Below, piece after piece: positions 7,766 through 52,401 of a stretch of DNA of 64,000 nt. The stretch spans positions 8,235 to 72,234 of the forward strand of contig CALAML010000150.1 in assembly GCA_937925845.1 (NCBI GenBank). Reading direction: 5' to 3'. Positions within the stretch are counted from its first letter, which is position 1, and every line of letters begins with the position of its first letter. The position numbers and the translations under genes are program-made. This DNA comes from an uncultured Acidimicrobiales bacterium. GTDB lineage: Bacteria; Actinomycetota; Acidimicrobiia; Acidimicrobiales; CALAML01. The notes below the pieces were generated by a model, which saw only the letters and a program-made list of their open reading frames with translations, was not told where the DNA came from and did not search any database.

Positions 7766-7968
7766 TGTTTGCTCCCGAGATCATCATTGAGGTTGTACAA
7801 GATTGCGCCTCCTCCGGCGCCGAACCACTCTGTCGGCTCCTCGCCAATTCAGTTGAGCCAATCGACAGAGAATCACCAAGAATTCCCGCGCTTGAGGGAA
7901 CCGAAGCCCCCACCACTGCGTCTCATGCGAGACACCTGCCGCGAACCAACCGACGAAGCGAGAGCAAT

Positions 7969-11602: not shown

Positions 11603-11663
11603 AGGATCACTCCACACACCCGCTTTGAAGGCGGGGGAGCCCACCAGGTACTCAGACACCTCC
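11568..11663 (-). tRNA. selC: tRNA-Sec (anticodon UCA)
   Basis: The reverse complement reads GGAGGTGTCTGAGTACCTGGTGGGCTCCCCCGCCTTCAAAGCGGGTGTGTGGAGTGATCCTTCACAGGCGGGTTCGATTCCCGTCCACCTCCGCCA. Anticodon stem CCCGC/GCGGG with loop CTTCAAA gives UCA. The D stem is 6 bp with a small loop, the variable arm is a long 7-bp helix (TGTGGAG/CTTCACA), the T arm is GCGGG-TTCGATT-CCCGT, the discriminator is G and CCA is encoded. This is the same architecture as E. coli selC. Confidence 0.9.
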
Positions 11664-34083: not shown

Positions 34084-37000
34084 TTACTGGCTAATCCGCT
34101 GGAGCACGCCGCCCTTGATGAAGCCGGCCTCCCGGCGATCGAGGTGGGTTTCTCGCACGAAGTCCTCACGGCTGCCCACGATGGCATCCACCGCCTCGGC
34201 CGGGCCGGCACCATAACCACTCCACACCGGGTGACCGTTCACGATCGTGTCCTCGAACACGGCGAACTGGTTCAGCCCAACCAGATGCGAATACTCGCCG
34301 AACAGTCGGAGAAGCTGGCCCATGTTGTGGCGGCTCAGCATCAACATGGCGTTCGGGTCGTCGCCCATCACCGACCGCAACCGATCGATGGTCTCCGGCG
34401 CCGTCGGATCGAGCGTCAACGTGGTGAGCCGCTCATGGGTCGGCTCGTCCCCGCCTGACCCAGCGTCGCCACCATCACCGTTACCCCCACCATCACCGGC
34501 ATCGGGAGACACCACCGACAGCACCTGACCGTGTCCGATCAGCTCGCAGATCGTGGCCAGGAACCAGGCTCGCTCCGGATCACCGATGTCGATCACGTAG
34601 TCGGGACGCGACGTTGACATCAGCTCCTGATAGGCCATCAGGTCGGCACTCGGCCGTCCGATGGTGCGACCCAACCATTCGGTGCGCTCCCAACTCATCG
34701 AGTTGTACAGCGCGTGGGTAAAGCCGTCCCGAAGCTCTTCGGGAATCGGTACCGCCTGCTCCGGCCGGCCATCGGCGCCGGTGGGGTTGGCCTTGACGAA
34801 GTAGGCCGGAGCCAGCAGCCGCCGCGGTCGGGTCCGCTTGGCCTGATTGCCCATCGAACCAACAAAGTGCAGCGGCTTCTTGGTGGCCCGGAAGGTGACG
34901 CCTCGCAGATCCTCGTAGTGATCACGATAGGAAACCAAGCGCCGCGTCCGCTCGCCAACGTCGGGCATGTTGGTGGTGGTGCCGCCGTGGACCTGATGGA
35001 ACGATGCCTCGCCGAGGGTCGTCACCACCTTCACATCGGGCCGCGACGTATGACGCTCGTAGAAGTCGAGGTTGGCATAGCCACCCCCGGCCATCGAGAA
35101 CGCCTCGTCCATCGAGCCGCACTGCTCCAACAGCGACCGAGGTAGGAAGATGCAGTTGCTCTCGATCATGGGATCGAGCCAGTCGCGATCGCCGATGAAG
35201 TGGCCGATGTTAAACAGCCGGTAACCGTCCTCGGGCCAGTTCACCTCCTTGAACAGACGATCCTCAAAGCGCTGGTTGTAGCCGCCCTGCATGGCCTCGC
35301 TCTGCTGACCCGGCCCCACAAACCATTGCTGGGTGGTGATCACGGCCGGCGGATAGGTGGCGATACCGGTCAGCGCCGCCGACAACACGCCCGGGGTCAG
35401 CACATGGGCCCCGTCGATCATGAAGCCGATGTTGTCGCCCCGCGACTTCTCGACGCCGAAGTTCAAGGCGTTCACCGGACTCGGGGCCGCTTCGTCGCCG
35501 AGGTCGAAGTAGCGGAACTCGGGCCCAAACGAGCGCACGTAGTCCTCGCCCAACGCCTCTTCCGGCTTCGAGCCGTTCTCGACCACAAGCACCTCGTAGT
35601 CGACGTCCTCCAGACCCAATTGGTACGAGCGGCTCAACGAATGCAGGGTGCGAGCGGCCTCGCGCTTCATGTTGTAGAAGACCACCACAACCGACAGGTC
35701 ACACGTTTTGGCCTGGCGCCGGAGATCGGGGATGGGTGCGGCCCGAACCACCGGCTCGTCGGAAGCATCCACCGACTCGGCCTCGGCCTCCTTCTCCCAG
35801 GTGACGCTGACCGAATCGATCCGCTCCAGCACCTCGGTGATCCCGGCCTCCGACCGGAACTCCTGCAACGCCTCTTCGATGTCGGGTTCGGTGCCGCGCT
35901 CGATGATGATCTGCCCGCCCTTGGAGACGCGAGGGTAGAGCTGGGTCAGCGTGCTCACCACATGCTTGGCCTCAACGTTGAGCCGCAACAGCGCCAGCTC
36001 GCCGATCGGGTTCGACGGCAGGGTCACCTCCAAGTCGCCCTGGAGGAAGTGGACCCGATCATCCAGAAGGTCGTAGCGGGCAAAGACCTCCCGCACCTCG
36101 TTCAGATCGGTCGGCGCCACTGAGTCGTCTTCGAGACGGAACTGGTCGGCCACCCACACATGGCGGGCCTCGTCCTCCCAGGCCTCGAGGTAGCCGCGCA
36201 GAAACACCGACTCGCCGCCGCCATCGGTACCCACCACCATGAAGTCGCCCTCGACCTCGCGCTCACGCAGCGAATCGAGCTGACCCCGCAGATGGTCGAG
36301 GCGGTAGTCACCCATCCGGGCATAAGGCAGGAAAGCGGTGCGGTCGGCCACGTTGGTGCGAGGCGGGAAGCCGCTACGACGCTTGGCCTCAAGCTCGCGG
36401 CCCTTCCACAACAGCGCCCGCATCGGGTCCCGAAGGGTGCTGCGATCGGGGGTGGTGCCCCGACGGGCACACATCAACAGATGCTCCATCCGCAGCTCGT
36501 TCTCGATGTAGAAGGCGTTGAGCAACGACTTCTTCAAGATGTTGAGGTAGCGGTCAGCGGAGCGTTCCTGGGCCTTGTTGGCCACCGACACGCCGTAGTT
36601 GTGGTGGTACTCGATATCGGTGAGGCGAAGATCCTCGGTCATCTCGAGCAGCTGCTTGCGGGTGTGGGTCCGCTCCAGCTTGTCGAGGGCATGGGCCAGC
36701 CGCGGCCGCTTCTCCAGATACTCCTCCTCGACCATGATCAACAGGCCGAAGTAGACCGGGAGGAGCACCCGGCGAATCTTCTTCGGGTGCTCCTTCTGGA
36801 AGTCGTCGATGGCGGTCATCACACCGTTGCGCTTGCCGCCCTCAACCACCGCGTTGGCCAGCTGGGAGTTCACGCCGAAACCGGCGCGCGGATGAAGCCG
36901 ACGCCGTCCGCGAACGATGCCGCGCCGCATCCACGGCTGGCGGAACTCGTCGGGAATCTGCTCCGGTGCGTAGTAGAGGTCGCGGCGACCATAAGGCCAC

Positions 37001-37374
37001 AGCACGTCGTGGCAGATCATCACCGGCATCGGTTTGTCGTTGCGGGTGGTCACCTCCGTCAGCGCCTTGAGCTCGTGATACACGGTGAACCAGTTGTGGT
37101 CACCGTCGACCAGAGCGACGTCCATCGGCGGCAGGTCATCCAACACATCGAGGCTCAGGGCCCGATGGAAGATGTACTTGCCCGGGAACGCTGCGGCCTG
37201 TTCATCGGGGTCGAACTGCGGCAGTGGATCGATCACGTGGAGCTCGGCCCTGGGGCCGAGGGCGTTGACCATCAGCTCGGTGGTCTCACCGCGCAAGGCC
37301 CCAATCTCCACCATACGGTTGGCGCCAGCGGCGCGGATTACGGGTTCGATGGCAATTTCCCAGAACGGAAACAC
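34084..37374 (-). CDS. 1096-aa four-domain enzyme: class-I methyltransferase, degenerate TylF-like domain, GT2-like glycosyltransferase, CmcI-like methyltransferase
   Basis: N-terminus 'MVEIGALRGETT...LVDGDHNW'. Middle 'DRYLNILKKSLLNAFYIENE...GDFMVVGTDGGGESVFLRGYL...VWVADQF...LLRLNVEAK...GGQIII'. GT2-like 'LSVVVVFYNMKREAARTLHSLS...YEVLVVENGS...FMIDGAH...FHQVHGGTTTN'. C-terminus 'WLGRTIGRPSADLMAYQELMSTSRPDYVIDIG'. Confidence 0.8.
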   Translation of the reverse strand: MFPFWEIAIEPVIRAAGANRMVEIGALRGETTELMVNALGPRAELHVIDPLPQFDPDEQAAAFPGKYIFHRALSLDVLDDLPPMDVALVDGDHNWFTVYHELKALTEVTTRNDKPMPVMICHDVLWPYGRRDLYYAPEQIPDEFRQPWMRRGIVRGRRRLHPRAGFGVNSQLANAVVEGGKRNGVMTAIDDFQKEHPKKIRRVLLPVYFGLLIMVEEEYLEKRPRLAHALDKLERTHTRKQLLEMTEDLRLTDIEYHHNYGVSVANKAQERSADRYLNILKKSLLNAFYIENELRMEHLLMCARRGTTPDRSTLRDPMRALLWKGRELEAKRRSGFPPRTNVADRTAFLPYARMGDYRLDHLRGQLDSLREREVEGDFMVVGTDGGGESVFLRGYLEAWEDEARHVWVADQFRLEDDSVAPTDLNEVREVFARYDLLDDRVHFLQGDLEVTLPSNPIGELALLRLNVEAKHVVSTLTQLYPRVSKGGQIIIERGTEPDIEEALQEFRSEAGITEVLERIDSVSVTWEKEAEAESVDASDEPVVRAAPIPDLRRQAKTCDLSVVVVFYNMKREAARTLHSLSRSYQLGLEDVDYEVLVVENGSKPEEALGEDYVRSFGPEFRYFDLGDEAAPSPVNALNFGVEKSRGDNIGFMIDGAHVLTPGVLSAALTGIATYPPAVITTQQWFVGPGQQSEAMQGGYNQRFEDRLFKEVNWPEDGYRLFNIGHFIGDRDWLDPMIESNCIFLPRSLLEQCGSMDEAFSMAGGGYANLDFYERHTSRPDVKVVTTLGEASFHQVHGGTTTNMPDVGERTRRLVSYRDHYEDLRGVTFRATKKPLHFVGSMGNQAKRTRPRRLLAPAYFVKANPTGADGRPEQAVPIPEELRDGFTHALYNSMSWERTEWLGRTIGRPSADLMAYQELMSTSRPDYVIDIGDPERAWFLATICELIGHGQVLSVVSPDAGDGGGNGDGGDAGSGGDEPTHERLTTLTLDPTAPETIDRLRSVMGDDPNAMLMLSRHNMGQLLRLFGEYSHLVGLNQFAVFEDTIVNGHPVWSGYGAGPAEAVDAIVGSREDFVRETHLDRREAGFIKGGVLQRISQ

Positions 37375-38145
37375 TTAGGGTCCTCCAGCGGAGAGAGTGG
37401 GAGAGGGAACACCGGAAGAACTTCCGGCGCTTGGGGTGCGGGCGGCAACCAGGTTCTGGGCGAACTGGTAGAGCTCTACGTCGGCAGCGTTATCGCGGGC
37501 GATCCGTTGCCGAAGATCATCATCCACGGGCTCGGCCCGGGTGGCGTTGGCGGTGAGTTCGGGGCCAAGATCGATCCCGAAGCGTTGGGTCAGCTCGGCG
37601 CAGAAGTCGTCGAAGGTCTCCTGCAACCCGACCACATCAATCAGCTCAAGCTCGCGCTTGGCTGTCTCCAGCCGCTCGTTGTCGATCGGCTGCACGGTAA
37701 GCATGCCCGCCGGCTGAATCTCATCAACCGTCAGCGAGAACATCTTGGTCATGTGGTTGTGGATCATGCCGTCGAAACGAAACGGATCTTCGTAGATCTC
37801 TTCGAGGCTGAGGTGGGCGTCCGCGGGAAAGAACATCTTGTGATAGCGCAGATACGACAGCGTGCGCTCCACCGGATCCCGCAACACCGTGAAGGTGGTG
37901 AAGTCGGCGTCGAGCAGTTCGACGGTGGCGAGGGGGAAGTGACCGGCCACCACCTTGATGTCGTCGCCGCGCTGATGCCAACGATCAACCAGATGGTCGA
38001 CCATGATCGTCCGCTGGTCGCGGGCACCATCGAGTTCGTCGCAGGGATAGACCGCGGTATCTCCAAAGGCATGACGCAACCGCATCAGCAGGCTGGTGCC
38101 CGCCGTCTTTTGCAGATGCACATAGAAGAACCGCTCGTCGGTCAT
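37375..38145 (-). CDS. sulfotransferase (Sulfotransfer_2-like, paralog 1)
   Basis: N-terminal 'FFYVHLQKTAGTSL' matches the FxHIPKTGGTS PAPS-binding loop. 'TVLRDPVERTLSYL' matches the 3'-phosphate-binding RDPxxR(x)xS motif. Confidence 0.75.
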   Translation of the reverse strand: MTDERFFYVHLQKTAGTSLLMRLRHAFGDTAVYPCDELDGARDQRTIMVDHLVDRWHQRGDDIKVVAGHFPLATVELLDADFTTFTVLRDPVERTLSYLRYHKMFFPADAHLSLEEIYEDPFRFDGMIHNHMTKMFSLTVDEIQPAGMLTVQPIDNERLETAKRELELIDVVGLQETFDDFCAELTQRFGIDLGPELTANATRAEPVDDDLRQRIARDNAADVELYQFAQNLVAARTPSAGSSSGVPSPTLSAGGP

Positions 38146-38147
38146 GG

Positions 38148-38882
38148 TTATGCGCCACCACCATTGGTCGATTCCCGGTGGTAGCGGGCGCGCGCTGCTT
38201 CGTAAAACGCAATGTCCGCCGCATTGTCCACGGTGATTCGTTCCCTCAATCCCGCCGGCAGGTCGAATGGGTCACTTACATGAATGTTCGGCACTTCATC
38301 GAAGGACCAGCCATAGAGATCGGTCATGGTCTGCATCAGGAAGCCGAGATCATCAGTGAACCCAACGTGGTCGACCTCGTCAAGATGAACCAGCGCGGTT
38401 TGCACCCGGGCCTCGTCCACGTCGATCACATCCATGTACGACTCGAGCTTGTCGGAGCGGTCCATGGCGAAGATCTTCACCTGGTGGTTGTGCATGAAGC
38501 ACTTGAAGTAGAACTCGTCGTCGTAGATCTCGTCGAGTGGCATGTTGGCGTGCTGGGCGTGGGTGACGCTGGCGTGCTTCAGATAGGAGATGATGCGGTC
38601 GACCGGGTCTCGCAGGATCGTGAAGGTGATCGGCTTGCGGGGCAGCATCTGGCTGGCGATATACGGGAAGTGCCCGGTGTAGGCACGGGTTCCGGCGTGT
38701 TGCTCCTCGGAGCGGCCCAGCAGGTACTGGATCGACGTGTTGGCGTGGAACATGTCGTCCACCCGCTTGATCGGGTAGACCTCGCCGTCGGCGAAGTTGT
38801 TGTACACGTGCTGGCGGAACGTCGCCCCGGCGGTCTTCATCACGTGGACAAAAAAGAATGGCTGATCAGTCGGTTCGCTCAC
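38148..38882 (-). CDS. sulfotransferase (Sulfotransfer_2-like, paralog 2)
   Basis: 'FFFVHVMKTAGATF' and 'TILRDPVDRIISYL'. Paralogous to 37375..38145. Confidence 0.75.
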   Translation of the reverse strand: MSEPTDQPFFFVHVMKTAGATFRQHVYNNFADGEVYPIKRVDDMFHANTSIQYLLGRSEEQHAGTRAYTGHFPYIASQMLPRKPITFTILRDPVDRIISYLKHASVTHAQHANMPLDEIYDDEFYFKCFMHNHQVKIFAMDRSDKLESYMDVIDVDEARVQTALVHLDEVDHVGFTDDLGFLMQTMTDLYGWSFDEVPNIHVSDPFDLPAGLRERITVDNAADIAFYEAARARYHRESTNGGGA

Positions 38883-40426
38883 GCGGGTACTTCCGTCGGT
38901 TGGTGTGCGGCAGGTGGATGGATGCGCTCCCAGACTCCCTGGGCCACGGCGTCGGGTAGCCAGGTCAGCGTGCGGAGGCGTTCTTCGGTGAGCTCGGCCA
39001 AGCCGGCCGGCCCCCCAACTTCGTCGAGCAGGCGGGCCCGGCGCTTGGTGCCCAGTCCGGCGATGCCCGATAGATCGGGTTCAGACAGGTCGGATTCAGA
39101 CAGATCGGATTCAGACAGAGCGGGCTCGGACAGATCGATGACCGATTCGGCCGGCTGTGCTGGCTCTGCTGGCTCGGCCTCATCGATAGCTTCGACCTCA
39201 GCGAGTTCTTCGAGTTCTTCGAGTTCTTCGAGCTCATCGGCCTCTTCGGCGGGGCCGGTGGCCAGGAGTTCGGCATGGGCCTGGATCCTCTCGAACACCA
39301 CTTCGGCCACGTCAGCGCCGAGCCAGTCCAGCTCGGCCAGGTGCTCCCGGGTTGCGGTCGACACGCCCGACACCCCGCCCAGTTCCTCGACCAGCCGTTT
39401 GCGCTTCGTGGGGCCGAGACCATCGATGTCGTCGAAGAGTTCGCGCTTGCGGGCCCGGGACCGAGCCGTTGGGTTGGCGTCGGCCCAGCGCTCCTCCAGG
39501 CGGTGCTGGTACACCTTTTGTTCCAGCACATTGGCGTCGGCGATGGTGACGTTGTCGAATCGATTCGGGTCGAACGGAACGACGGTGAACCGCTTGCGCT
39601 TCCAGTAGTACTGGTAGGCCGTTCCCTCCCACCCCTCGTAGATCTCTTCCCAGCTCAAACGGCCGAAGTGGGGCTCCAGCACCAGATCGGTGAGCTCCTC
39701 GCGCTCGGGCTGGAATCGGAAGTCGACCGAGAGCCGCATCTGATCGCGGGTGGAGTTGTTGAGCGCAGCGTGCATGGTGTGCGAGCTAAACAGCAGCAGG
39801 TCGCCGACCCGATATTCGGCGGTGAGCCAATGGAGCTTGCGCAGCTCCGGCGACAGCGAACCCCTCCGGTTGCCGGACCCGAGCGAGAACTCGAGGGGCT
39901 GAACCCCGTGAAGATGCGAGCCCGGCAGCACGGCCAGGCCGCCGAGCGAATGGGGTACGTCGCTCAGCGGCACCCACGCGGTGGTCAACAACGCGGTGCC
40001 CTGGTTGTTCGGATAGTCCTGGTGGGGCGGTGTCGAGATCTCCCAGTTGTTGGGGAACACCAAGCGGGCCACCTTCAAGGGATGGGGAAACGCCGACGGC
40101 CCCACCACGTCGCGCATCACGTTCATCAGCGGGCGGCTGTGAGCCAGGCTGTGAAAGGTCTCCAAGCGCTGGATGTCGTCGTACACCCGCAGGTATTCCT
40201 CGTCACCCTCGCGCACCGGTCGGATCGCCGCGCTCGACCGCCTCAGCCAACCGTGGTGGCGAAGCACCTTGGTCATCTCGCGGTGCACCGTGCGCACCCG
40301 GCCGGGCCGCAAAACCTCGCGGAAGAACAGGTAGCCGTCGGTGAGCATCCGATGGCGCAACAGGTTTGGTTCGCCCAGCAAGTCGTTCGACTCGACCAGG
40401 TCGCCAAAAGCCCAGACGTTATTCAC
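38879..40426 (-). CDS. PhyH-family dioxygenase fused to two UvrC-like helix-hairpin-helix modules separated by an acidic repeat linker
   Basis: N-terminus 'PPHQDYP' (HxD), 'GGLAVLPGSH' and 'SHTMHAA'. C-terminus 'IDGLGPTKRKRLVEELGGVSGVSTATREHLAELDWLGADVAEVVFERI' and 'IAGLGTKRRARLLDEVGGPAGLAELTEERLRTLTWLPDAVAQGVWERI'. Confidence 0.8.
   Translation of the reverse strand: MNNVWAFGDLVESNDLLGEPNLLRHRMLTDGYLFFREVLRPGRVRTVHREMTKVLRHHGWLRRSSAAIRPVREGDEEYLRVYDDIQRLETFHSLAHSRPLMNVMRDVVGPSAFPHPLKVARLVFPNNWEISTPPHQDYPNNQGTALLTTAWVPLSDVPHSLGGLAVLPGSHLHGVQPLEFSLGSGNRRGSLSPELRKLHWLTAEYRVGDLLLFSSHTMHAALNNSTRDQMRLSVDFRFQPEREELTDLVLEPHFGRLSWEEIYEGWEGTAYQYYWKRKRFTVVPFDPNRFDNVTIADANVLEQKVYQHRLEERWADANPTARSRARKRELFDDIDGLGPTKRKRLVEELGGVSGVSTATREHLAELDWLGADVAEVVFERIQAHAELLATGPAEEADELEELEELEELAEVEAIDEAEPAEPAQPAESVIDLSEPALSESDLSESDLSEPDLSGIAGLGTKRRARLLDEVGGPAGLAELTEERLRTLTWLPDAVAQGVWERIHPPAAHQPTEVPA
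39076..39238 (-). repeat. in-frame coding microsatellites in the PhyH-HhH linker (15-bp x4 encoding (D/A)LSE(S/P); 9-bp x4 encoding ELE)
   Basis: 15-bp units at 39076-39135 (cggRttcagacagRt). 9-bp gagttcttc units at 39203-39238. Degenerate gctggctc units lie between them. All periods are multiples of 3. Confidence 0.85.
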
Positions 40427-40438
40427 CCCGACCTCCCC

Positions 40439-42340
40439 TCACCGCAACCGCCCCCGCACCCGTTGGGCCACATCGCGGATCAAACCCGGCTGAATCAGGC
40501 CGGGGACCCGATCAGCGCCAGCGCCCCCACGAGCAACATCCTCAGCAGCAGTATCCTCAGCAGTAATGCCGTGGATCTCGCCCCGGGCCTGACCCTGATA
40601 GTGAGCCAGCAGGGCGGCGCGTGACTTGGCCAGGGCCGCGGTGAAGTCGGCCGAGAACGACGCGGCCCCGACCGCCGCCGGATGAAGATGGCCCATCACC
40701 AACGGGGCGCGCGCCGGCGCGGCGTAGGGCGCGCCGCGGATGTGTTCATACTGCAACCGATACCGGTCGACCTTGGCCGCCCGGTCGCTGCGGGTGGTGT
40801 TCGTCGTGGTTCCCCCATGAGCCTGATGAAAAGTACCCTCCCCCATGATGGTCACATAACACCCACCGGGCAACATCGTCGACCGGTGAAAGAGATCCAA
40901 ATTTAGAAAACCACCGGCCGGATCGTCGAATCGAGCATCGACGCCGCCCATGGCATCCCACATCTCGCGGGTCAGGGAGAGGAAGTTGGTCTCGAACAGC
41001 TCATCGAACCAACCGGCCCCGGAGTCGCCAACAAAAACGGCGGCCTCAAAGAGTCGGTAGCCATCGTCGAGCCAACCGATCCGATCCAGCAAGGGTCCGT
41101 GATCGAGCCCAGCTTCCGCAGCTGCGAAGGCATCAACCTGCTGGCGATCCCCCAGGAAGAACCGATGGAACGCCACCACGGCAGCCGGTTCGGTCGCAGC
41201 AGCCCGCAGACACCAGCTCACCACTCGCGGCGAGAGGAGATGGGCGCCATCGATCATGATCGCCAGACGGTCGGCGGTCGATGCGGCCACCCCCCGTTCG
41301 ATGGCCTCCGCCAGGCTGGCCTCCCCCACATCGAGTCGCACCAGGCGCACCGACTCGTCGTCGGCCAGATCCGGTGGCAACACCAAAGGAGTGGGCGAAC
41401 CGTTGTCGACGGCCACCACTTCGATTTGGCCCGGCTCAACGCCGCGCTGGTAGGGCGCCAACGCACTCCGGATCGACCGGACCGCTTGGTCAGCCATGTC
41501 GAAGCTGATGTGGACGATGCTCAACGCCGGCGACGGTGCCGGGTCGGCTGTTTCTGTTGCGGCTGTTGTTGCAGACCGACCGGGCCCGAACCGCTGATGG
41601 TCGGCCTCGAGCAGGCGGGCCGACAATTCGTCGACCTGGCGAGCCAAGCGCCCGATCCGCTGGCGGGCCGCTTCAGCGCCGGCATCTCGAGCCTCAAGCG
41701 TGGTGTTGCGGAGGGCAGCTCGGACTGCAGAGTCGGCGACAACCGGTGCGCACCGATCGATGATCGTCGACCGAAGTTGATCGATCGACGGGTGGGCCGA
41801 CGCCCGCACCAACACCCGGAACCCGCCACCACCGGGCACCTCAAAGCCATCCCAACCAGGCGCACCGGAAAGCGAGTCGGCTACCGCCGCAGCCACGGTG
41901 AACGGCCCGACGTCGTCGCGCCACCGCAACTCAGGTCGAGCCCCATGGGCCACCAGGTCGCCGGTGAAGGGATGAACACCAACATCGTCGGACGGCTCGG
42001 ACGGGTCGACCCGATCTGCCGCCCGCACGTCGAAGGGGAACCCGACGTTGCCGATGATCAGGGTGTCGAAGCGATCAGCGGCCAGCACCCTGCGAGCGAT
42101 GGTAGCCACCTCCTCGCCGCTCACCGGATCCCAGATGATCACGGCTCGACCCTCGCTGGCGTTCGGGTCATCCCACTCGCGGGCCCACCCGCGGGCGTGA
42201 GTCCAGCTGCTCAGCCCCCCAGGCGTGCTCTCCCAGGCGACCCACGACGCCGGGTGCACCACAATCCCAGCGGCGTGACCAAGGCTCTCGGCGATGATCG
42301 CCGCCACCTCGGATGCGACAAAATGCTCGAGCGGCCCCAC
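40439..42340 (-). CDS. 633-aa protein: unknown N-terminal ~270 aa plus GT2-like domain paralogous to the one in the 1096-aa enzyme
   Basis: 'LSIVHISFDMADQAVRSIRS...IEVVAVDNGS...IMIDGAHLL...DDGYRLFEAAVF...FHQAHGGTTTN' aligns motif for motif with 34084..37374. Confidence 0.7.
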   Translation of the reverse strand: MGPLEHFVASEVAAIIAESLGHAAGIVVHPASWVAWESTPGGLSSWTHARGWAREWDDPNASEGRAVIIWDPVSGEEVATIARRVLAADRFDTLIIGNVGFPFDVRAADRVDPSEPSDDVGVHPFTGDLVAHGARPELRWRDDVGPFTVAAAVADSLSGAPGWDGFEVPGGGGFRVLVRASAHPSIDQLRSTIIDRCAPVVADSAVRAALRNTTLEARDAGAEAARQRIGRLARQVDELSARLLEADHQRFGPGRSATTAATETADPAPSPALSIVHISFDMADQAVRSIRSALAPYQRGVEPGQIEVVAVDNGSPTPLVLPPDLADDESVRLVRLDVGEASLAEAIERGVAASTADRLAIMIDGAHLLSPRVVSWCLRAAATEPAAVVAFHRFFLGDRQQVDAFAAAEAGLDHGPLLDRIGWLDDGYRLFEAAVFVGDSGAGWFDELFETNFLSLTREMWDAMGGVDARFDDPAGGFLNLDLFHRSTMLPGGCYVTIMGEGTFHQAHGGTTTNTTRSDRAAKVDRYRLQYEHIRGAPYAAPARAPLVMGHLHPAAVGAASFSADFTAALAKSRAALLAHYQGQARGEIHGITAEDTAAEDVARGGAGADRVPGLIQPGLIRDVAQRVRGRLR

Positions 42341-42502: not shown

Positions 42503-45500
42503 GTGACTGCAGCGAGGGATGGGAGCGCGGACGTGTATCTGGTTTTAGGGGCGCATCGGAGTGGAACATCGGCTGTTGCCGGTGCGCTCGCGGAGTTGGG
42601 CCTGGATGTTGGGGAGCCCTTGCTGGCCGCGAACTCGGCTAACCCCACGGGCTACTACGAGCTTGAGAGTCTGGTCGACTTCCACGAGTCGGCCCTGCGA
42701 ACGATGAACCGATCCTGGGACGACCCGCGCCCGATCCGGTTGCGTTCGCTGGCTCCAGCCGATCGTGAGACGGCCAAGCGCAAGGCTGGCACCCTGTTGG
42801 CCAACACCTTCGGCGACGACACCACCAAAGCCCTGATCAAGGACCCGCGGCAGTGTCGCCTGCTCGGACTGTGGGACAAGGCCCTGGAGGCCCACGACCC
42901 CCACTACATCCTGGTGCATCGGCCCGCCGCCGAGGTGGCTGGCTCGATGGCCAAGCAGTGGGGTACCTCGCCCGAGCGAGCTGGCCTGCTGTGGCTGGTC
43001 CACGTGCTCGATGCCGAGGCTTCGACACGAGGCCAGACCCGAGCGCTGCTCTCCTATGACCAGCTGCTGCGCCAACCTCTCGACACCCTCAAGCATCTCG
43101 GCCGGTCCCTCGGAACCACCTGGCCCATCCCCCCGGCGGCAGCCAAAGATGCTCTCACCACCTTCCTGCAGCCCAAGATGCGCCACCACCGAAGCAACAA
43201 GCCGGACTTCGGCGACCTGGCACCCATCATCGACCAACTCGAGGCCGCCCTGGACCGAGGCAGCGACGACGACACCTTCCACGCGGTGGTCGACCGCTGC
43301 CGAGCCAAGACCGCGGTGCAGCTGGCCAAGCTTGACGATGCCGCCTTCGAGCACGCCAACTCCCTGGCGCGACGCAACGCCGACGAGATCATCCGGATGG
43401 ACGGCCGACTCGATGAACAGTCGGGCTGGCTGAAAACCCTCAGCGGCCAAGTCGAAGACATTGAAGGAAAACTCGCCGGCCAAGGCAACGCCAGCAACGG
43501 AAACGGCAACGCCGGAGGTGGCGGCAACAGCTCATCGTCGGACGAGCCGAGCGAGATCGCCAAGCTGGCTTTCAAGGTTGACGACGCCGCATCGAAGACC
43601 GCCAAGTTCGAGATGCGACTTCGTGAGCTGGCCACCCGCAAGGAAGTCCGCCAGCTCGCCGGCAAAGTCGACAAGCTGACCAAAGCGGCGGCCGACACAC
43701 CAGAGCCAGCGCAGGTTCAACCCGGCAAGAACAACGGAGCGGGCCAGAACAAGGGAGCCGGCAACGGCGCATCGGGACCGAACAAAGCGGCTCCGATGAA
43801 CCTGGTACGCAAGGTGCAACAGCAGCTCAACATCCTCGGCGACCGAGTCGAGTCACTCGAGGCCGCAGGGCGGGTGCGGGCCAACCGATCGGCGGCCGCA
43901 GGCTCGACCGCCGACCTCCAACGCGAGCTCGACGAAGCCCACCGGCTTCTTGGCGAGCACCAGAAATGGCTCCAGCAGCTGGCTAAGGACGTGCGCGAGC
44001 TGCGAGCCGCGGACGTTGAGCAGCAAAAGTGGCTCAAACAGATCTCCCACGACGCGGGCGAGAACTCCGGCCACATCGTGCGAATCCAGCGGGAAATTAC
44101 GCCGACAGCCCCGGCCCCGCTCGTTCGCCGGGTCGCGGCCCGCACCTCAAGAGTGCCCCGGGCCCAAGTAAAGAGATGGCGGGTCAACCGCATGAGAGAT
44201 TTGGCGCCGGCAAACCCTACGATCGGCCAGGAGACAATGGGCAGACTCCTGGCCGGTACCCAACCCAAAGAGCCGACAACACCCCTTCGTGATCTGTCGT
44301 TCGGTCGTTCCGACGAACCGACCCTCTCGATCGTCATCGCCGCCTACAACCAGTTCGACCTGACAGCCCGGGCTCTCGCTTCGATCTTCGAAAACCCAGC
44401 CAGCGCCGAAGTCGAGATCATCCTCGCCGATGACGGCAGCACCGACCCCAACATGGCGCGGTTCAACGACGTACCGGGGCTCACCGTGGTGCGTTCCGAG
44501 GAGAACCGTGGCTTTCTCAAGACGGTCAACGCGGCCGCAGCCGAAGCCAGAGGCGACTACCTCCTGCTGTTGAACAACGACGCCTTCGTAACGCCGGGTT
44601 GCCTCGACGCGATGCTGATGACCTTTGTCGACCAGCGCAACGTGGGTGTGGTCGGCGCCAAGCTCCTGAACCCGAGCGGTTCGGTCCAAGAGGCCGGCGG
44701 CATCGTCTGGGCCGATGGTTCGGCCTGGAACTACGGCCGAGGGCTCCACCCGGAAGAACCGGTTCTGAACTACAGCCGCACCGTCGACTACGTCTCGGGC
44801 GCGGCGCTGATGATCGTGCGTGAGATCTGGGATTCACTGTCCGGTTTCGACCCAGCCTATGCCCCGGCGTACTACGAAGACACCGACCTCTGTATGCGGG
44901 TTAACCAGCTCGACCTGCGGGTGGTTTATCAGTCGGCGGCTGCGGTGGTACACAACGAGGGTTCTTCCTACGGCACCGATGAGACCTTCGACGGCAAGCG
45001 CTACCAGACCGTGAACCAGGCCACCTTCATCGAGCGCTGGGGCAAGGAGCTGAGCAATCGGAGGTCCAACGGTGAGGCTCCGGAGCTCGAAAAGGAGCGC
45101 TCGGTCAACCACCGCACGCTGGTGATCGACGCCCGGATGCTCTACCCCGACCGCGACTCGGGCTCGCTGCGGATGCAGCGCCTGCTGCGAGAGATTGGGC
45201 GTTGCGGATCGAAGCCAACCTTCCTGCCGCTGAACCTCAAAATCGAGGAACCCTATGCCACCGACCTCGGCGCCCTCGGTGTTGAGGTGTGGGGCGATCC
45301 CTTCGTGAAGTCAGTTGAGGAGTACCTGGTTGAGCGCGGTCACCTCTATGACCGCATCGTGCTCAGCCGGGTTGAGGTGGCTGACGCCTGTCTCGAGAAG
45401 GTGCGCCAGCACTGCCCTAACGCCACGGTCGTCTTCGACACGGTCGACCTGCACTTCCTACGGCTCGAACGAGAACTGAACGTACGGGGCTCGCTGGCGG

Positions 45501-46210
45501 GAGGTTTCGACCTCGAACAGATCACCCGGGACGAACTGGCCGCCATCAACGGCGCCGACGTCACCTGGGTGTGCAGCAGCGTCGAACGCGACCTGCTGGC
45601 CGAACGGGCTCCCGATGCCATCGTCGAAGTGGTGTCGAACATCCACGACGAAGAGATCACCGAGACCGAGGTCGAGGGCCGAAAGGACCTGTTGTTTGTC
45701 GGCGGTTTCGAACACCCGCCCAACCTCGATGGCATCCGCTGGTTTGTCGAAGAAGTGTTCCCGGCGATTCGCGCCGATGCCCCGGGCATCACCCTGCACA
45801 TTGTTGGCAGCAGCACCAACGACGAAGTGGTCCAACTCGAAGGCGACGGCATCGTCGTCCATGGCCACGTCGCCGACCTCCGCTCGCTCTACGAGCGCTG
45901 CCGGGTGGTGGTGGCACCGCTCCGCTACGGCGCGGGGGTAAAAGGCAAAGTGACCCAGGCCATGGCCCTCGGAGTGCCGGTGGTGGCCACCTCGATGGCG
46001 GCCGAAGGCCTCGATGCCCAGGATGAGGAACACCTTTTGATCGCTGATGACTCCAGCCTGTTCGCCATGCGGGTCCTGCGGCTCCTGACCGAAGACGATC
46101 TCTGGGTCTGGGTCAGAACCTGCGGCCGCAAGCTGGTCGCCGACCAGTTCAGCCCCGACGCAACCCACGGCGCATTGGACCCCGCGGTAGTGGTAGCCCA
46201 GCAACGGTGA
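42503..46210 (+). CDS. 1235-aa fusion: N-terminal sulfotransferase, ~260-aa coiled-coil/low-complexity spacer, GT2 domain, C-terminal GT4-like (GT-B) domain
   Basis: ST domain 'VYLVLGAHRSGTSAVAGAL' (5'-PSB loop). Spacer with recurring 'QSGWLKTLSGQV / HQKWLQQLAKDV / QQKWLKQISHDA' and Asn/Gly runs. GT2 'LSIVIAAYNQFDLTARAL...IILADDGSTD...LLLLNNDAF'. GT-B 'LLFVGGFEHPPNLDGIRWF...LRYGAGVKGKVTQAMALGVPVVAT'. GTG start at 42503 is tentative. Confidence 0.85.
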   Translation: MTAARDGSADVYLVLGAHRSGTSAVAGALAELGLDVGEPLLAANSANPTGYYELESLVDFHESALRTMNRSWDDPRPIRLRSLAPADRETAKRKAGTLLANTFGDDTTKALIKDPRQCRLLGLWDKALEAHDPHYILVHRPAAEVAGSMAKQWGTSPERAGLLWLVHVLDAEASTRGQTRALLSYDQLLRQPLDTLKHLGRSLGTTWPIPPAAAKDALTTFLQPKMRHHRSNKPDFGDLAPIIDQLEAALDRGSDDDTFHAVVDRCRAKTAVQLAKLDDAAFEHANSLARRNADEIIRMDGRLDEQSGWLKTLSGQVEDIEGKLAGQGNASNGNGNAGGGGNSSSSDEPSEIAKLAFKVDDAASKTAKFEMRLRELATRKEVRQLAGKVDKLTKAAADTPEPAQVQPGKNNGAGQNKGAGNGASGPNKAAPMNLVRKVQQQLNILGDRVESLEAAGRVRANRSAAAGSTADLQRELDEAHRLLGEHQKWLQQLAKDVRELRAADVEQQKWLKQISHDAGENSGHIVRIQREITPTAPAPLVRRVAARTSRVPRAQVKRWRVNRMRDLAPANPTIGQETMGRLLAGTQPKEPTTPLRDLSFGRSDEPTLSIVIAAYNQFDLTARALASIFENPASAEVEIILADDGSTDPNMARFNDVPGLTVVRSEENRGFLKTVNAAAAEARGDYLLLLNNDAFVTPGCLDAMLMTFVDQRNVGVVGAKLLNPSGSVQEAGGIVWADGSAWNYGRGLHPEEPVLNYSRTVDYVSGAALMIVREIWDSLSGFDPAYAPAYYEDTDLCMRVNQLDLRVVYQSAAAVVHNEGSSYGTDETFDGKRYQTVNQATFIERWGKELSNRRSNGEAPELEKERSVNHRTLVIDARMLYPDRDSGSLRMQRLLREIGRCGSKPTFLPLNLKIEEPYATDLGALGVEVWGDPFVKSVEEYLVERGHLYDRIVLSRVEVADACLEKVRQHCPNATVVFDTVDLHFLRLERELNVRGSLAGGFDLEQITRDELAAINGADVTWVCSSVERDLLAERAPDAIVEVVSNIHDEEITETEVEGRKDLLFVGGFEHPPNLDGIRWFVEEVFPAIRADAPGITLHIVGSSTNDEVVQLEGDGIVVHGHVADLRSLYERCRVVVAPLRYGAGVKGKVTQAMALGVPVVATSMAAEGLDAQDEEHLLIADDSSLFAMRVLRLLTEDDLWVWVRTCGRKLVADQFSPDATHGALDPAVVVAQQR

Positions 46211-47001: not shown

Positions 47002-47111
47002 GCGGTCTGAAGCCAACCCTCGGCGACAGCGTTACGACAAGACGCTTGCCTTCATCGGCCATCGTTCGTACCGTCGGAGTAGTCCCACTCTCTCCAGTCC
47101 ATCTCGGGGCC

Positions 47112-47507
47112 ATGAAAATCTCTCCCTCTCCACCGATACCCTGCCGGGTCGGTTTCCAGCTACCAGACTGGTTTTCCGACCTCGTCTCCCTGCTGGTAGA
47201 CGAACGCGGCCTGGACCCACTCACCCTTGCCACCAGCCGGGTAGCCGCCGGCGGCTTCCTCGCGGTTTCGGTGCTCGCGCCCCAGAGCGTCTTCTTCGCC
47301 TTTGTCCCCAAACACCAGGACGAAGTAGAGATCCGTGAAGTCCGCTGGTCGAATGCCGTTTCGTTCCACCCGCCGTCGGCCGCGGTGGCCTTTGGCCGAA
47401 CCTGGTTTCAATTTATTGACCTCGACCGTGGCGAACTGCAGAGCTTTTGTTCGTCGGTCAAGCAGTACCCGGAGCAGTCCGACCGAACCACCCGCCGCGC
47501 CAAGTAG
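47112..47507 (+). CDS. hypothetical protein
   Basis: ORF 47046..47507, internal ATG 47112. Third-position GC is moderate, no motif or clear RBS. It is kept only because it fills the operon gap. Confidence 0.4.
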   Translation: MKISPSPPIPCRVGFQLPDWFSDLVSLLVDERGLDPLTLATSRVAAGGFLAVSVLAPQSVFFAFVPKHQDEVEIREVRWSNAVSFHPPSAAVAFGRTWFQFIDLDRGELQSFCSSVKQYPEQSDRTTRRAK

Positions 47508-47559
47508 CAGTCTCCGAGACAGATCAGGCTTTGGTCGATCCTCCGGCCTCCACTAATCT

Positions 47560-48627
47560 GTGAAGATGGGCGGCGGCGAGATTGAAGAGGGCGAAGACGC
47601 GCAACCCTTTGAGGGCTCCCAGCAGTCCAGGCTGCCCTTTGCCATCGGTGGCCTGGTGGGCCACCTGAGTCGGGGCGAGGGGCATCGAGATCCGGCGCCG
47701 GACGCCGGATCGATCGACACGCTGGTGGAAAAAGAGGACATCCCCGACGACCAGCTGACCGAGCTGAACTTTCGTCCGGTTTCCGAACTCAACACCAGCC
47801 TCTCGATGTTTGTCTGGCGAGCCACCGCGGTGCTGCGGTATCAGCCGTCGCTGGTGCGCCAGATGTTCAAGCGGGACTTCACCGCGGTCTACCGCAGTTC
47901 CAAACTCGGACTCTTCTGGCTGGTGCTCACGCCGCTGGCCACCATGTCCTCGTGGCTGCTGCTTCGCTACAGCGGCGTGGTGCTCGACTCGACCACGGCC
48001 GGAGCTGGAGGAGGCTCCACCGCCGACTTCATCCTGTTGCTGTTGGTGAACATCACCCTGTGGAGCGGTTTCCGCACCGTGATCGGCACGTTGCGCAACT
48101 CAATGCGTCGATCCTCACTGCTGCTTCAGGTTCGCTTCCCTCACGAGGCGGTGCTGTTGCAGAACCTCCTGACCTCCGCAGTGCAGATGGTCATCCCGGT
48201 GATCCTGCTGCTGATCTTCGTGGTGTTGTCGGGCAACGCCGGAGGGCTTGTGGGAGCGCTCCTGTTCCCCCTTGCCGTGATCCCGCTGTACATTGCGGCC
48301 ACCGCCGTGGGCCTCGTGGCCGCCCCGCTGTCGGTGGTGTTCCCCGATGTGACACGGGCCATCGACGTGGTGCTGGGCTTTATGTTTGTGGCCACCCCGA
48401 TCATCTACCAGCGCGAGATCATCGCCGACAAAGAGTTCGTGAACACCGCAGTCGGGTGGAACCCACTCACCCACCTGCTCGGCTGGCCCCGTGACCTCCT
48501 CCTTGGCGAAACCACCACATCGTTGTTGCCGCTACTCGGCAGCATCGGCGGATCCGTCGTGCTGCTGCTCTTTGCCATCCGGCTCTTTTCCGTCGGCTCC
48601 CGGCTCGTGGCTGAGCGGCTGGTCTGA
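47560..48627 (+). CDS. ABC-2-type polysaccharide export permease (Wzm/TagG/KpsM-like)
   Basis: 'FKRDFTAVYRSSKLGLFWLVLTPL' is the ABC-2 N-terminal signature, followed by about 6 hydrophobic helices. The start is uncertain: 47560 (GTG) gives an 82-aa acidic extension, while ATG 47806 gives a typical 273-aa permease. Confidence 0.8.
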   Translation: MKMGGGEIEEGEDAQPFEGSQQSRLPFAIGGLVGHLSRGEGHRDPAPDAGSIDTLVEKEDIPDDQLTELNFRPVSELNTSLSMFVWRATAVLRYQPSLVRQMFKRDFTAVYRSSKLGLFWLVLTPLATMSSWLLLRYSGVVLDSTTAGAGGGSTADFILLLLVNITLWSGFRTVIGTLRNSMRRSSLLLQVRFPHEAVLLQNLLTSAVQMVIPVILLLIFVVLSGNAGGLVGALLFPLAVIPLYIAATAVGLVAAPLSVVFPDVTRAIDVVLGFMFVATPIIYQREIIADKEFVNTAVGWNPLTHLLGWPRDLLLGETTTSLLPLLGSIGGSVVLLLFAIRLFSVGSRLVAERLV

Positions 48628-50877: not shown

Positions 50878-50889
50878 GTCCGGCCGAGG

Positions 50890-52299
50890 CTACCTGGTCT
50901 GGTTTGTGAAGCGCCGCAACTTGCGGTCGAGGGTGCGGGCGGTACGGGTAAACCTCGGCCGGCCGATCAGGTTGTTGCACTCCGATGGGTCGGCGGTGAG
51001 GTCATAGAGTTCCCGCCCACCACCGGCATAGAGGGTGTAGCGCCAGTTGCGCCACCGGATCGAGTGGTTGCCCTCCCAGTGCATGATCGCCGGGCGGGCG
51101 TCGGCCTCCTGGCGGGTGATGCCGACCAGACTCTCACCCTCAAACCCAGCGAAGGTGTTGCTTCCGGCGACATCAAGAATGGTGGGGGCCACGTCGACCA
51201 GGCTCACCGGCTTGGCGAACCGGCCACCGGCCTTCAGCCCCGGCGCTCGAACCAGCAACGGCACCCGAGTGGCCTGGTTCCACAGAGTCGACTTCCGCCA
51301 GTGGAGCTTCTCACCGAGGTGGTAGCCGTGATCGGAGACCAACACGACCGAAGTGTTGTCGTTGTGGGGCGAGGACGCCAGGCTGTCCATGATCTGGCCG
51401 ACCATGGCATCGGTATGGGTGATAGCGGCCAGGTAGGCCTGGACCAGTCGGCGTTGGGCCCGCTGCCGCGTGACCTGTTCGTGCTGGGTTCGGCCGCCGA
51501 AGAGAATCGGCCGTTGGGCCAGTACCCGACCCATACGGGGGACATCGGCCAGGTCGTTCGGGCAGTTGGGCTGAGGGAGCTCAACGCTGCTGATCGGATG
51601 CTGATCGAAAGCCCACTGAGGCACCCGCCACGGCACATGGGGCTGATAGAGGCCCACGGCCATAAAGAACGGGAGGCGAGGGTTGGCGATATGGCGGGAA
51701 AACCAGTTGGCGGTCCGCTGATCCTCATGGACCTCCGAAGGCGGCATGACGCCGACCTCGAAGAACGTCTTTTGGAAGCTCGGATTACTTCGGTTGGCGA
51801 TCTCAGGAAGTTCCCGGTAGTTGCCGGCCACCGTCCAGCGATCGGGGAGGGCGTCATGAAACACCTTGCCCCGGTTGTAGGTGACCCAACCGCGCGATCC
51901 CAACACCTCGGGAATAGTGAGGCGGCCGGAGTTCTGGAGACTGCGGTAGCTCTGGAAGCTCCCGACACCAGTCGACTCAACCCCTGTGGTTTGCGGCGAG
52001 ACGCCCCACATCATCGATGCCCTCGATCCAATGCATGTCGGCACGCTGCAGTAGGCGTTGTCGAACGAGAACGACTCGGCCCGCAGCGCGTCGATGTTTG
52101 GGGTCTTTACGCCCGGATGGCTGTCGAGGTAGCCCACCCAGTCGCGGAGATCGTCGATATAGAGCATCAGCACATTGCGCCGACCCCCACGTCGACCCTG
52201 AGCGCTGGCCTGGCCCGCTTGGCCCAGCGTGACCCCACCCAGGGATCCCGCGGCGGTCGCCGCTGCGGCTCCCCCAATGAACGTCCGCCTGTTAAGCAT
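50890..52299 (-). CDS. Tat-exported sulfatase (iduronate-2-sulfatase-like) with a C-x-G-S-R active-site motif
   Basis: Twin-arginine signal 'MLNRRTFIGGAAAATAAG...ASAQ'. 'NVLMLYIDDLRDW' (metal-binding DD) and 'KTPNIDAL'. Active-site segment 'CIGSRASMMWG' sits where sulfatases have CxPSRxxxxTG. GAAGGTGGAAG RBS. Confidence 0.85.
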   Translation of the reverse strand: MLNRRTFIGGAAAATAAGSLGGVTLGQAGQASAQGRRGGRRNVLMLYIDDLRDWVGYLDSHPGVKTPNIDALRAESFSFDNAYCSVPTCIGSRASMMWGVSPQTTGVESTGVGSFQSYRSLQNSGRLTIPEVLGSRGWVTYNRGKVFHDALPDRWTVAGNYRELPEIANRSNPSFQKTFFEVGVMPPSEVHEDQRTANWFSRHIANPRLPFFMAVGLYQPHVPWRVPQWAFDQHPISSVELPQPNCPNDLADVPRMGRVLAQRPILFGGRTQHEQVTRQRAQRRLVQAYLAAITHTDAMVGQIMDSLASSPHNDNTSVVLVSDHGYHLGEKLHWRKSTLWNQATRVPLLVRAPGLKAGGRFAKPVSLVDVAPTILDVAGSNTFAGFEGESLVGITRQEADARPAIMHWEGNHSIRWRNWRYTLYAGGGRELYDLTADPSECNNLIGRPRFTRTARTLDRKLRRFTNQTR

Positions 52300-52401
52300 C
52301 CACTTCCACCTTCGTCAGCTAATTTGATGTATTCCTGCTGTTCTTTGGGCCAACGTAGTGTAGTCAGCCCCGCAAGCGCATGCGAGATGATGACGTTGCC
52401 G

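Follow-up and report, generated by a model that had tools for sequence, protein, structure and literature searches.

The locus and its four-part protein

We analysed a 64,000-nucleotide stretch of contig CALAML010000150.1 (assembly GCA_937925845.1, from an uncultured Acidimicrobiales bacterium), hereafter the window, in which a single open reading frame (ORF) of 1235 codons encodes, in order, a sulfotransferase-fold domain, a spacer of coiled-coil-like helices and two glycosyltransferase domains (families GT2 and GT4), upstream of the genes for a Wzm/Wzt ATP-binding cassette (ABC) exporter (Table 1). The protein may be a polymerase-terminator that halts the growth of a glycan by sulfating its end. 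The four-part layout had been proposed in a preliminary description of this DNA and is borne out by Pfam, by an AlphaFold2 (AF2) model and by Foldseek comparison, with borders at residues 10-250 (sulfotransferase), 257-532 (spacer), 605-880 (GT2) and 890-1235 (GT4). GC content at third codon positions (GC3) ranges from 0.62 to 0.90 over the entire frame, in a window of 64% GC, which fits a real coding sequence.

The glycosyltransferase half is readily recognised. PF00535 matches residues 609-723 (E 1.6e-20, 74.1 bits against a cut-off of 23.3), a second GT2 family, PF13641, spans residues 606-822 and also exceeds its curated cut-off, and sequence matches to this part in the PDB are chondroitin synthase and other GT2 enzymes. 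The GT4 part is matched by PF13692 at residues 1061-1196 (E 2.6e-27, 96.3 bits against a cut-off of 27) and, likewise above cut-off, by PF00534 and PF13524, Pfam placing the GT4 domain at residues 1057-1219; NCBIfam TIGR03087 scores 131 bits here, short of its equivalog cut-off.

The preliminary description placed the ORF at the head of an operon ending in the exporter. The same-strand order stands (large ORF, a stand-alone sulfotransferase gene overlapping it by 4 nt, a small ORF, wzm, wzt), and this synteny is kept at L082, the locus of a close ortholog. It is interrupted, however, by a gap before the longest wzm ORF (47002-47559) that contains the small ORF, and any co-transcription is presumptive. 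The small ORF is 41% identical in amino acid sequence to its L082 counterpart, and the flanking genes show about 69-74% nucleotide identity (blastn). Since similarity of wzm to L082 begins only at about 47769 (blastn; GC3 was also examined), the true start of Wzm may be Met83 (about 47806), in which case the gap extends to about 47800. On the + strand from the large ORF to wzt no intrinsic-terminator-like site was detected, the promoter and terminator scan being uninformative.

Table 1. Features of the fused gene and its neighbourhood (window positions, strand and basis of assignment).
Feature	Position	Strand	Basis and remarks
Whole ORF, 1235 aa (sulfotransferase, segmented coiled coil, GT2, GT4)	42503..46210	+	GTG start; ORF list and translation
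Sulfotransferase-fold domain, residues ~10-250	42530..43252	+	AF2, Foldseek, family profile
5'-phosphosulfate-binding loop G16-A-H-R-S-G-T-S-A24	42548..42574	+	Conservation; profile alignment
Invariant Glu53 in NPxGYWE motif, candidate catalytic base	42659..42661	+	Invariant in alignments A1, A4, A6
K113-D-P-R116 motif	42839..42850	+	K113, D114, P115, R116 invariant in A1, A6
3'-phosphate-binding motif R140-x7-S148 (HRPAAEVAGS)	42920..42946	+	R140, S148 invariant in A1, A4, A6
Spacer helix 1, residues 257-333	43271..43501	+	AF2, pLDDT 65-86
Gly/Asn/Ser linker 1, residues 334-344	43502..43534	+	AF2 non-helical, pLDDT <50 at 338-343
Spacer helix 2, residues 345-397	43535..43693	+	AF2; heptad score >=0.85 at 350-398
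Gly/Asn/Pro-rich disordered linker 2, residues 398-429	43694..43789	+	pLDDT <50 at 400-431
Spacer helices 3-5, residues 430-462, 469-517, 519-532	43790..44098	+	AF2; two QKWL(Q/K)Q segments
Arg-rich spacer-GT2 junction, residues 533-604	44099..44314	+	Low pLDDT
GT2 (GT-A) domain, residues ~605-880	44315..45142	+	Pfam PF00535, PF13641
GT4 (GT-B) domain, residues ~890-1235	45170..46207	+	Pfam PF13692, PF00534, PF13524
Stand-alone sulfotransferase, 264 aa	46207..47001	+	Sulfotransfer_3, E 1.7e-23; syntenic in L082
Small ORF, 153 aa	47046..47507	+	No Pfam match; counterpart of 133 aa at the same place in L082
Wzm permease, longest ORF	47560..48627	+	Pfam ABC2_membrane, residues 99-307
Wzt ATPase, 404 aa	48627..49841	+	Pfam ABC_tran only; start codon overlaps wzm stop by one base
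Convergent sulfotransferase, 341 aa	49852..50877	-	Sulfotransfer_3 9.8e-17, Sulfotransfer_1 3.7e-14
Two sulfatase genes (50890-52299 and 52402-53844)	50890..53844	-	Pfam Sulfatase, E ~1e-41 each
Divergent operon	34084..42340	-	Pfam
GT2 gene (divergent operon)	40439-42340	-	Pfam
PhyH dioxygenase-HHH gene (divergent operon)	38879-40426	-	Pfam
Two Sulfotransfer_2-like genes (divergent operon)	38148-38882, 37375-38145	-	Pfam
Methyltransferase x3 + GT2 protein, 1096 aa (divergent operon)	34084-37374	-	Pfam

The N-terminal sulfotransferase domain

The N-terminal domain falls short of the PF13469 (Sulfotransfer_3) cut-off of 27 bits, scoring 14.7 bits within the whole protein and 18.2 bits as an isolated domain, and a sequence search of the PDB with the first 300 residues found nothing; its identity was therefore tested by other routes. 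The AF2 model (residues 1-600, built from 29 sequences) has predicted local distance difference test (pLDDT) values above 90 for residues 10-280, and when this portion was compared with the PDB by Foldseek, ranks 1-21 were all sulfotransferases (best E 1.3e-4, probability 0.97-1.00), the top matches including OLS-ST (4gox), TPST, CurM-ST (4gbm), the mycobacterial Stf9 and Stf0, and StaL. Residues 1-290, used as a query, retrieved 28 relatives; Sulfotransfer_3 is matched at E<=0.01 by 16 of the 22 that were aligned (best 2.3e-11). When a profile took in the coiled coil as well, apolipoproteins and myosins dominated its PDB matches. A profile built from the domain alone (alignment A6, 51 sequences) matched 15 entries, all weakly: 14 are named sulfotransferases and the fifteenth, 2zq5, was deposited as an uncharacterised protein.

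The motifs expected to bind 3'-phosphoadenosine 5'-phosphosulfate (PAPS) are well conserved. Eight of the nine positions of the phosphate loop (all but residue 17) are invariant both in A6 and in A4, an alignment of 35 long relatives, and the family consensus of the loop (lGmHRSGTSAl) aligns with that of 2zq5 (GLVRTGTTAL); further on, the consensus vlRnPaeVaaS aligns with the 3'-phosphate-binding segment of SULT1A3 (ARNPKDVAVS). In A4 the KDPR motif is invariant at K113, P115 and R116 and almost invariant at D114. Glu53 is a putative catalytic base, a role that we presume by likening its position after the loop to the arrangement in TPST and 3-OST. The window protein keeps every residue that is invariant in the family as judged from A4 and A6 (G16, H18, R19, S20, G21, T22, S23, A24, G50, E53, K113, P115, R116, R140, S148 and R180). 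A catalytically dead domain would have undone the idea of a sulfate cap; with all of these residues and both PAPS-binding motifs in place, the domain is not obviously dead. The fold matches and intact motifs argue that it is a divergent sulfotransferase, probably active.

With the Sulfotransfer_3 enzymes TPST, CurM-ST, Stf0 and Stf9 the domain has in common the fold, the HRSGTS loop and the Arg-x7-Ser pair. It differs from them in lying under the Pfam cut-off, in the subfamily motifs NPxGYWE and KDPR, and in belonging to a subfamily in which a C-terminal coiled coil is near-obligatory.

The spacer

A stretch of about 275 residues separates the sulfotransferase from GT2 and has the repeated WL(K/Q) segments and Asn/Gly runs of the preliminary description. 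W-L-(K/Q)-x-(L/I) segments occur three times (residues 308, 488 and 509), and the two Gly/Asn/Ser runs (residues 327-346 and 399-429) coincide with low-confidence segments of the AF2 model. The model places five helices here, the four long ones measuring 77, 53, 33 and 49 residues; these are heptad-patterned and split by two disordered linkers. Patterning was measured with a simple home-made heptad score rather than COILS or DeepCoil, suited to relative comparison of regions, with a homolog bearing an obvious coiled coil as positive control. It flags 50% of residues 257-532 but 0% of the residues in the sulfotransferase and the two glycosyltransferase domains. The spacer is thus not predicted to be disordered throughout: helices with heptad patterning are modelled, and between them lie the disordered linkers.

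Over aligned blocks the L082 ortholog is 70-76% identical to the window protein, and over the helical segments 70-95%. Helix 1 (heptad score positive at residues 265-326, strong, at >=0.85, at 293-325) is followed by a linker whose sequence is not kept in the ortholog; helix 2 is nearly identical in it, and helices 3-5 (score >=0.85 at residues 466-520) are 80-95% identical. Linker 2 contains a tandem repeat (18 bp x 2.4, 43722-43764).

Beyond the coiled coil, 15 of 34 long relatives (for example at L021, L026, L045 and L074) and many stand-alone sulfotransferase-plus-coiled-coil proteins (alignment A1) carry the motif S[TR]SW[RK][LIV]T[AR]PLR. As such it is absent from residues 519-560 of the window protein, where an Arg-rich segment takes its place; either element could bind the membrane or a partner protein.

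The exporter

Wzt has an unusual layout for its 404 residues. In the AF2 model two helices (residues 21-61 and 66-113, pLDDT 88-97; nucleotides 48687-48965) form an N-terminal hairpin, which a disordered linker joins to a nucleotide-binding domain (residues 154-399), and the best Foldseek matches (TagH, Aquifex aeolicus Wzt and TarH) concern the nucleotide-binding domain only. Among the proteins of the cluster, long coiled-coil-like stretches by the heptad score are confined to the large ORF and, unexpectedly, this Wzt N-terminus. We considered whether the extension was an artefact of start-codon choice and rejected this explanation, as its GC3 is coding-like, it is kept in four homologs and the overlap with wzm is a single base. 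The extension is common to a small clade (P0061, P0063, P0064 and P0065), all of whose members are without the C-terminal domain Wzt_C.

LytR-CpsA-Psr and MDMPI_N genes are typical of Actinobacteria. Of two loci encoding distant relatives of the window Wzt, one (L084) has LytR-CpsA-Psr, GT4 (WecA/TagO-type) and ATP-grasp genes, and the other (L085) an MDMPI_N gene, a weak hint that the hairpin-bearing clade comes from Actinobacteria rather than from bacteria that produce lipopolysaccharide (LPS). The product could for this reason be a glycopolymer of the cell wall, and we avoid calling it an LPS O-antigen.

Relatives in other genomes

The sulfotransferase domain is far from rare. Used as a query, it retrieved 16,605 cluster representatives at E<=1e-3, a number that falls to 9,911 at E<=1e-10 and to 717 at E<=1e-30. 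Almost all of the 150 best carry the domain at the N-terminus, and about 27 of the 150 are at least 880 residues long. A scan of GTDB representative genomes located at least 568 loci, of which 80 were fetched and, with L001 added, gave the 81 loci counted here. The fetched loci span Pseudomonadota, Acidobacteriota, Myxococcota, Verrucomicrobiota, Planctomycetota, Nitrospirota and cyanobacteria. At least 40 coiled-coil-like residues follow the domain at 48 of the 81 loci. Thirty-four proteins reach 900 residues (GT2 in 24, GT4 in 13, RgpF in 4, WbsX in 2), and stand-alone sulfotransferase-plus-coiled-coil proteins of 300-700 residues are common.

A Wzt-type ATPase is encoded within 10 kb at 32 of the 81 loci, in 14 of them directly upstream on the same strand, and 21 of 31 nearby Wzt proteins have Wzt_C, a proportion that amounts to compatibility and not enrichment because many Wzt homologs elsewhere have the domain too. 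In Rhodanobacter geophilus (L048), metB, wzm and wzt(Wzt_C) are followed by the gene for a 430-residue sulfotransferase-coiled-coil protein and then by glycosyltransferase genes; of the ten ORFs scanned there, none encodes a methyltransferase or kinase domain. The order recurs in Dyella jejuensis (L074), where GT4 and GT2 are fused to the module. Cultured bacteria with the module in O-antigen-type loci include Rhodanobacter, Dyella, Stenotrophomonas nitritireducens, Pseudoxanthomonas koreensis, Sphingomonas and Cereibacter azotoformans, which makes the hypothesis directly testable. Because the module recurs directly after wzm-wzt, mostly with Wzt_C, the gene order supports a terminator role for the family, in WbdD-like (stand-alone) and WbbB-like (fused) formats.

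Seven loci (L001, L004, L011, L025, L035, L047 and L065) show the exact sulfotransferase, coiled coil, GT2, GT4 layout, and among proteins with the same catalytic modules the spacer, from sulfotransferase end to GT2 start, varies from 148 to 607 residues. P0003, encoded at L001, was the only full-length homolog in the first search (33% identity), and its gene lies after wzm-wzt(Wzt_C). Within its coil an 84-bp unit is repeated 5.6 times (11011-11480 of L001, 89% matches), giving a 28-residue repeat, ALQDEYDERTRWARQLDEARRDAESRLG, that equals four heptads. The P0003 coiled coil has grown by in-register duplication, and variation in register would be expected of a coil whose length can be adjusted.

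Comparison with known chain terminators

Capped glycans exported by ABC transporters share a hallmark, namely a terminator placed at a coiled coil's distal end together with a carbohydrate-binding module (CBM) at the C-terminus of Wzt that reads the cap (PMC11231755). Terminators that control chain length add methyl, phospho-methyl, or Kdo (3-deoxy-D-manno-octulosonic acid) in alpha or beta linkage, methyl being the commonest and sulfate going unmentioned; the terminal pyruvate of Klebsiella O1 diversifies the structure and is unnecessary for length control or export, and CBM-less systems of the Klebsiella O2a type control length by stoichiometry, through the balance of polymerase and exporter (PMC11231755). 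With the coiled-coil terminators WbdD, WbbB, O4 ORF7 and O7 ORF6 the window protein shares, in keeping with the definition given there, a catalytic module that does not polymerise and lies across the coil from the polymerase glycosyltransferases, at its distal end; Wzm/Wzt is encoded with it. The parallel to terminator-ruler-polymerase proteins drawn in the preliminary description holds for the four-part layout, which matches the formats of WbbB (O12) and of O7 ORF6 (PMC11231755).

WbbB, from Klebsiella pneumoniae O12 and Raoultella terrigena, is likewise a single polypeptide that runs from a terminating enzyme at its N-terminus through a coiled coil to two polymerising glycosyltransferase modules at its C-terminus, and works with Wzm/Wzt (PMC11231755). 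Its terminator is a GT99 beta-Kdo transferase, however, where the window protein has a sulfotransferase fold; the glycosyltransferase families differ, those of the window protein being GT2 and GT4; its partner Wzt has a cap-binding CBM that the window Wzt lacks; the window spacer is broken by disordered linkers; and Pfam and PDB searches gave no sequence homology between the two. The closest published format, that of a small-group transferase cap fused to GT2 polymerase modules, is ORF6 of K. pneumoniae O7, with an N-terminal non-glycosyltransferase terminator, a coiled coil and GT2 modules at the C-terminus (PMC11231755). There the cap is a methyl-phosphate added by methyltransferase and kinase domains rather than by a single PAPS-type sulfotransferase, and the O7 Wzt, unlike that of the window, bears a CBM.

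WbdD (Escherichia coli O9a and O8, Klebsiella O3 and O5) carries kinase and/or methyltransferase domains on a coil that is a single rod and recruits a separate polymerase, WbdA, whereas the window protein has a segmented spacer, is fused to its glycosyltransferases and has no homology to the catalytic domains of WbdD. The wbdD gene lies directly after wzm-wzt, and the likeness here is to the stand-alone relatives, several of which are encoded directly after wzm-wzt(Wzt_C). Searches of Pfam, NCBIfam and the PDB gave no match in the 1235-residue protein to the characterised terminator domains (WbdD kinase and methyltransferase, GT99, GT137), and its likeness to known terminators is one of architecture, not ancestry.

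A precedent for sulfate in this role comes from animals. In 2020 Sheikh et al. reportedly found that HNK-1 sulfotransferase acts on matriglycan, whose extension by the dual-glycosyltransferase polymerase LARGE1 can be limited by terminal sulfation; as this is a separate protein of the eukaryotic Golgi, with neither a coiled-coil ruler nor an ABC exporter, the parallel is an analogy only. In Aeromonas salmonicida an unexplained ORF with a sulfotransferase domain lies between wzt and wbbB, and no sulfate was seen in the O-antigen (PMC4483657). No paper in the searchable literature combined a sulfotransferase with WbdD, and those naming a sulfotransferase together with Wzm and Wzt were not about terminators.

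Interpretation and alternatives

The published pairing of a terminator with a CBM-bearing Wzt and the family data together lead us to favour, for the window protein, a polymerase-terminator in which chain-end sulfation stops extension, a reading whose prospects of being right or wrong we consider about evenly balanced. The protein would be a cytoplasmic enzyme that, like WbbB, assembles a glycan with one polypeptide; its C-terminal GT2 and GT4 domains would polymerise a lipid-linked glycan at the membrane, with the helical, heptad-patterned spacer keeping the PAPS-dependent sulfotransferase apart from them. Once a chain was long enough to reach the sulfotransferase, its non-reducing end would most likely be sulfated, which would block further extension, and so help to set chain length, before Wzm/Wzt exported the capped chain. 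We infer that the terminal sugar serves as acceptor, that its sulfation brings polymerisation to a stop and that the spacer measures length; whether the sulfate sits at the chain terminus is not decidable from the sequence. The terminator-coil-polymerase architecture is known, and the sulfotransferase as its terminator module would be new.

Several observations weigh against this reading. The window Wzt has no Wzt_C by Pfam, and ends a few residues after the last helix of its nucleotide-binding domain in the AF2 model; the two relatives at L004 and L025, which share the architecture, likewise have short Wzt partners. At 49 of the 81 loci, some of them on short contigs, no Wzt-type ATPase was seen within 10 kb, and where Wzt_C does occur it is a domain widespread among Wzt homologs in general. 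Linker 2 measures about 32 residues in the window protein and about 110, roughly threefold more, in the L082 ortholog; with the disorder of both linkers, this indicates a spacer that, as modelled, is coiled-coil-like but segmented by flexible joints of variable length and not a continuous rod, a structure that fits poorly with a rigid ruler. The cluster has four sulfotransferase genes besides the fused one, as well as two sulfatases, so sulfation of internal residues is equally easy to imagine. Lastly, apart from the terminator census of Mann, Kimber & Whitfield 2019, which may already predict a sulfotransferase class, the searchable literature yielded no bacterial sulfotransferase terminator, no terminal-sulfate cap and no chemistry pointing to a sulfate at the end of any bacterial glycan.

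The claims of the preliminary description divide accordingly. Its coiled-coil ruler retains the helices and their heptad patterning and loses the continuity that two disordered linkers, one of them variable in length, take from it. The proposed sulfate cap has on its side the architecture, an intact sulfotransferase and the adjacency of family members to wzm-wzt, set against the lack of Wzt_C, the jointed spacer and the extra sulfotransferases. The further suggestion that the cap licenses export has no basis at this locus, where Wzt bears an N-terminal helical hairpin in place of Wzt_C, and export is for that reason probably not gated by cap recognition through that domain.

A Wzt without a CBM, a jointed spacer and spare sulfotransferases make internal decoration a serious rival, one to which we nevertheless assign distinctly less weight than an even chance. 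On this account the fused sulfotransferase would modify internal residues, the spacer would serve in oligomerisation or as a scaffold, and length would follow from the balance of polymerase and exporter, as in Klebsiella O2a. The four further sulfotransferases and two sulfatases do suggest a heavily sulfated polymer, the linkers are disordered and variable in length, and published systems show both stoichiometric length control (O2a) and a terminal group, the O1 pyruvate, that is needless for length and export (PMC11231755). With four free-standing sulfotransferases already available for decoration, however, only the fused one is placed at the far end of a coiled coil, as in published terminators, and in the family the module occupies the place of wbdD, directly after wzm-wzt(Wzt_C).

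The hairpin invites a bolder extension, in which a sulfate cap operates across a large family spanning many phyla and, in the window clade, the Wzt hairpin docks on the segmented coil, replacing the reading of the cap by a CBM. Docking of the hairpin onto the polymerase coiled coil is a guess, and we regard the whole proposal as improbable; were it right, termination and export would be coupled physically and not through recognition of the cap.

Improbable as well, and less likely than internal decoration, is a methyl cap, added by the 1096-residue protein of the divergent operon or by a TylF or FkbM methyltransferase, with the sulfotransferase in some other role. Methyl is the commonest established cap (PMC11231755), and the cluster is rich in O-methyltransferase domains (TylF, CmcI, Methyltransf_24 and FkbM), but the 1096-residue protein is without the coiled-coil-like stretch that published terminators consistently have (PMC11231755), and there is no Wzt_C to read a methyl group. 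That the N-terminal domain is non-catalytic, for instance a sensor of PAPS or its product 3'-phosphoadenosine 5'-phosphate (PAP) or a glycan-binding regulator of the polymerase, is very hard to believe: its score lies below the curated threshold of every Pfam sulfotransferase family and characterised members of the subfamily are absent from the searchable literature, but the PAPS motifs and candidate Glu are invariant in 51 sequences that are 33-41% identical to the window domain, a pattern that purifying selection on catalysis would produce.

If chain-end sulfation by a polymerase-terminator is borne out, it would represent a new termination chemistry and tie chain-length control to sulfur (PAPS) metabolism. 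The module, present in about 10,000 clusters and in cultured bacteria, is no curiosity of one contig. The window locus itself departs from the published pair in combining a candidate coiled-coil terminator with a Wzt that is CBM-less and hairpin-bearing.

Neighbouring genes and other features of the window

Downstream of wzt and convergent with it, enzymes that add and remove sulfate lie side by side (49852-53844, - strand), and the sulfatase encoded at 50890-52299 carries a twin-arginine translocation signal (Pfam TAT_signal).

Upstream, no protein of the divergent operon (34084-42340) has a long coiled-coil-like stretch by the heptad score. One of its products, of 1096 residues, is an unusual fusion of Methyltransf_24, TylF, CmcI/rhamnosyl O-methyltransferase and GT2 domains; we considered it as a ruler or terminator in its own right and set it aside, as it lacks such a stretch. 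Between about 18100 and 34100 lie genes for a GT4 enzyme, FkbM and TylF methyltransferases, three radical-SAM enzymes (SPASM is present in one, and another has a weak match to a B12-binding domain that stays below threshold), a further three dioxygenases of the PhyH type, a carboxylesterase and a hexapeptide acyltransferase. The cluster appears to reach upstream into this stretch, the content of which suggests a glycan with extensive tailoring, or else a natural product of another kind. Amid these genes lies a hipA toxin gene (21466-22764, - strand).

The 64-kb window has no rRNA genes. It contains a selenocysteine tRNA gene (11572-11663, - strand; Rfam RF01852, 66.5 bits) and, at 7759-9435 on the + strand, a gene whose 558-residue product has four calcium-binding RTX repeats, with DUF6174 as its C-terminal domain.

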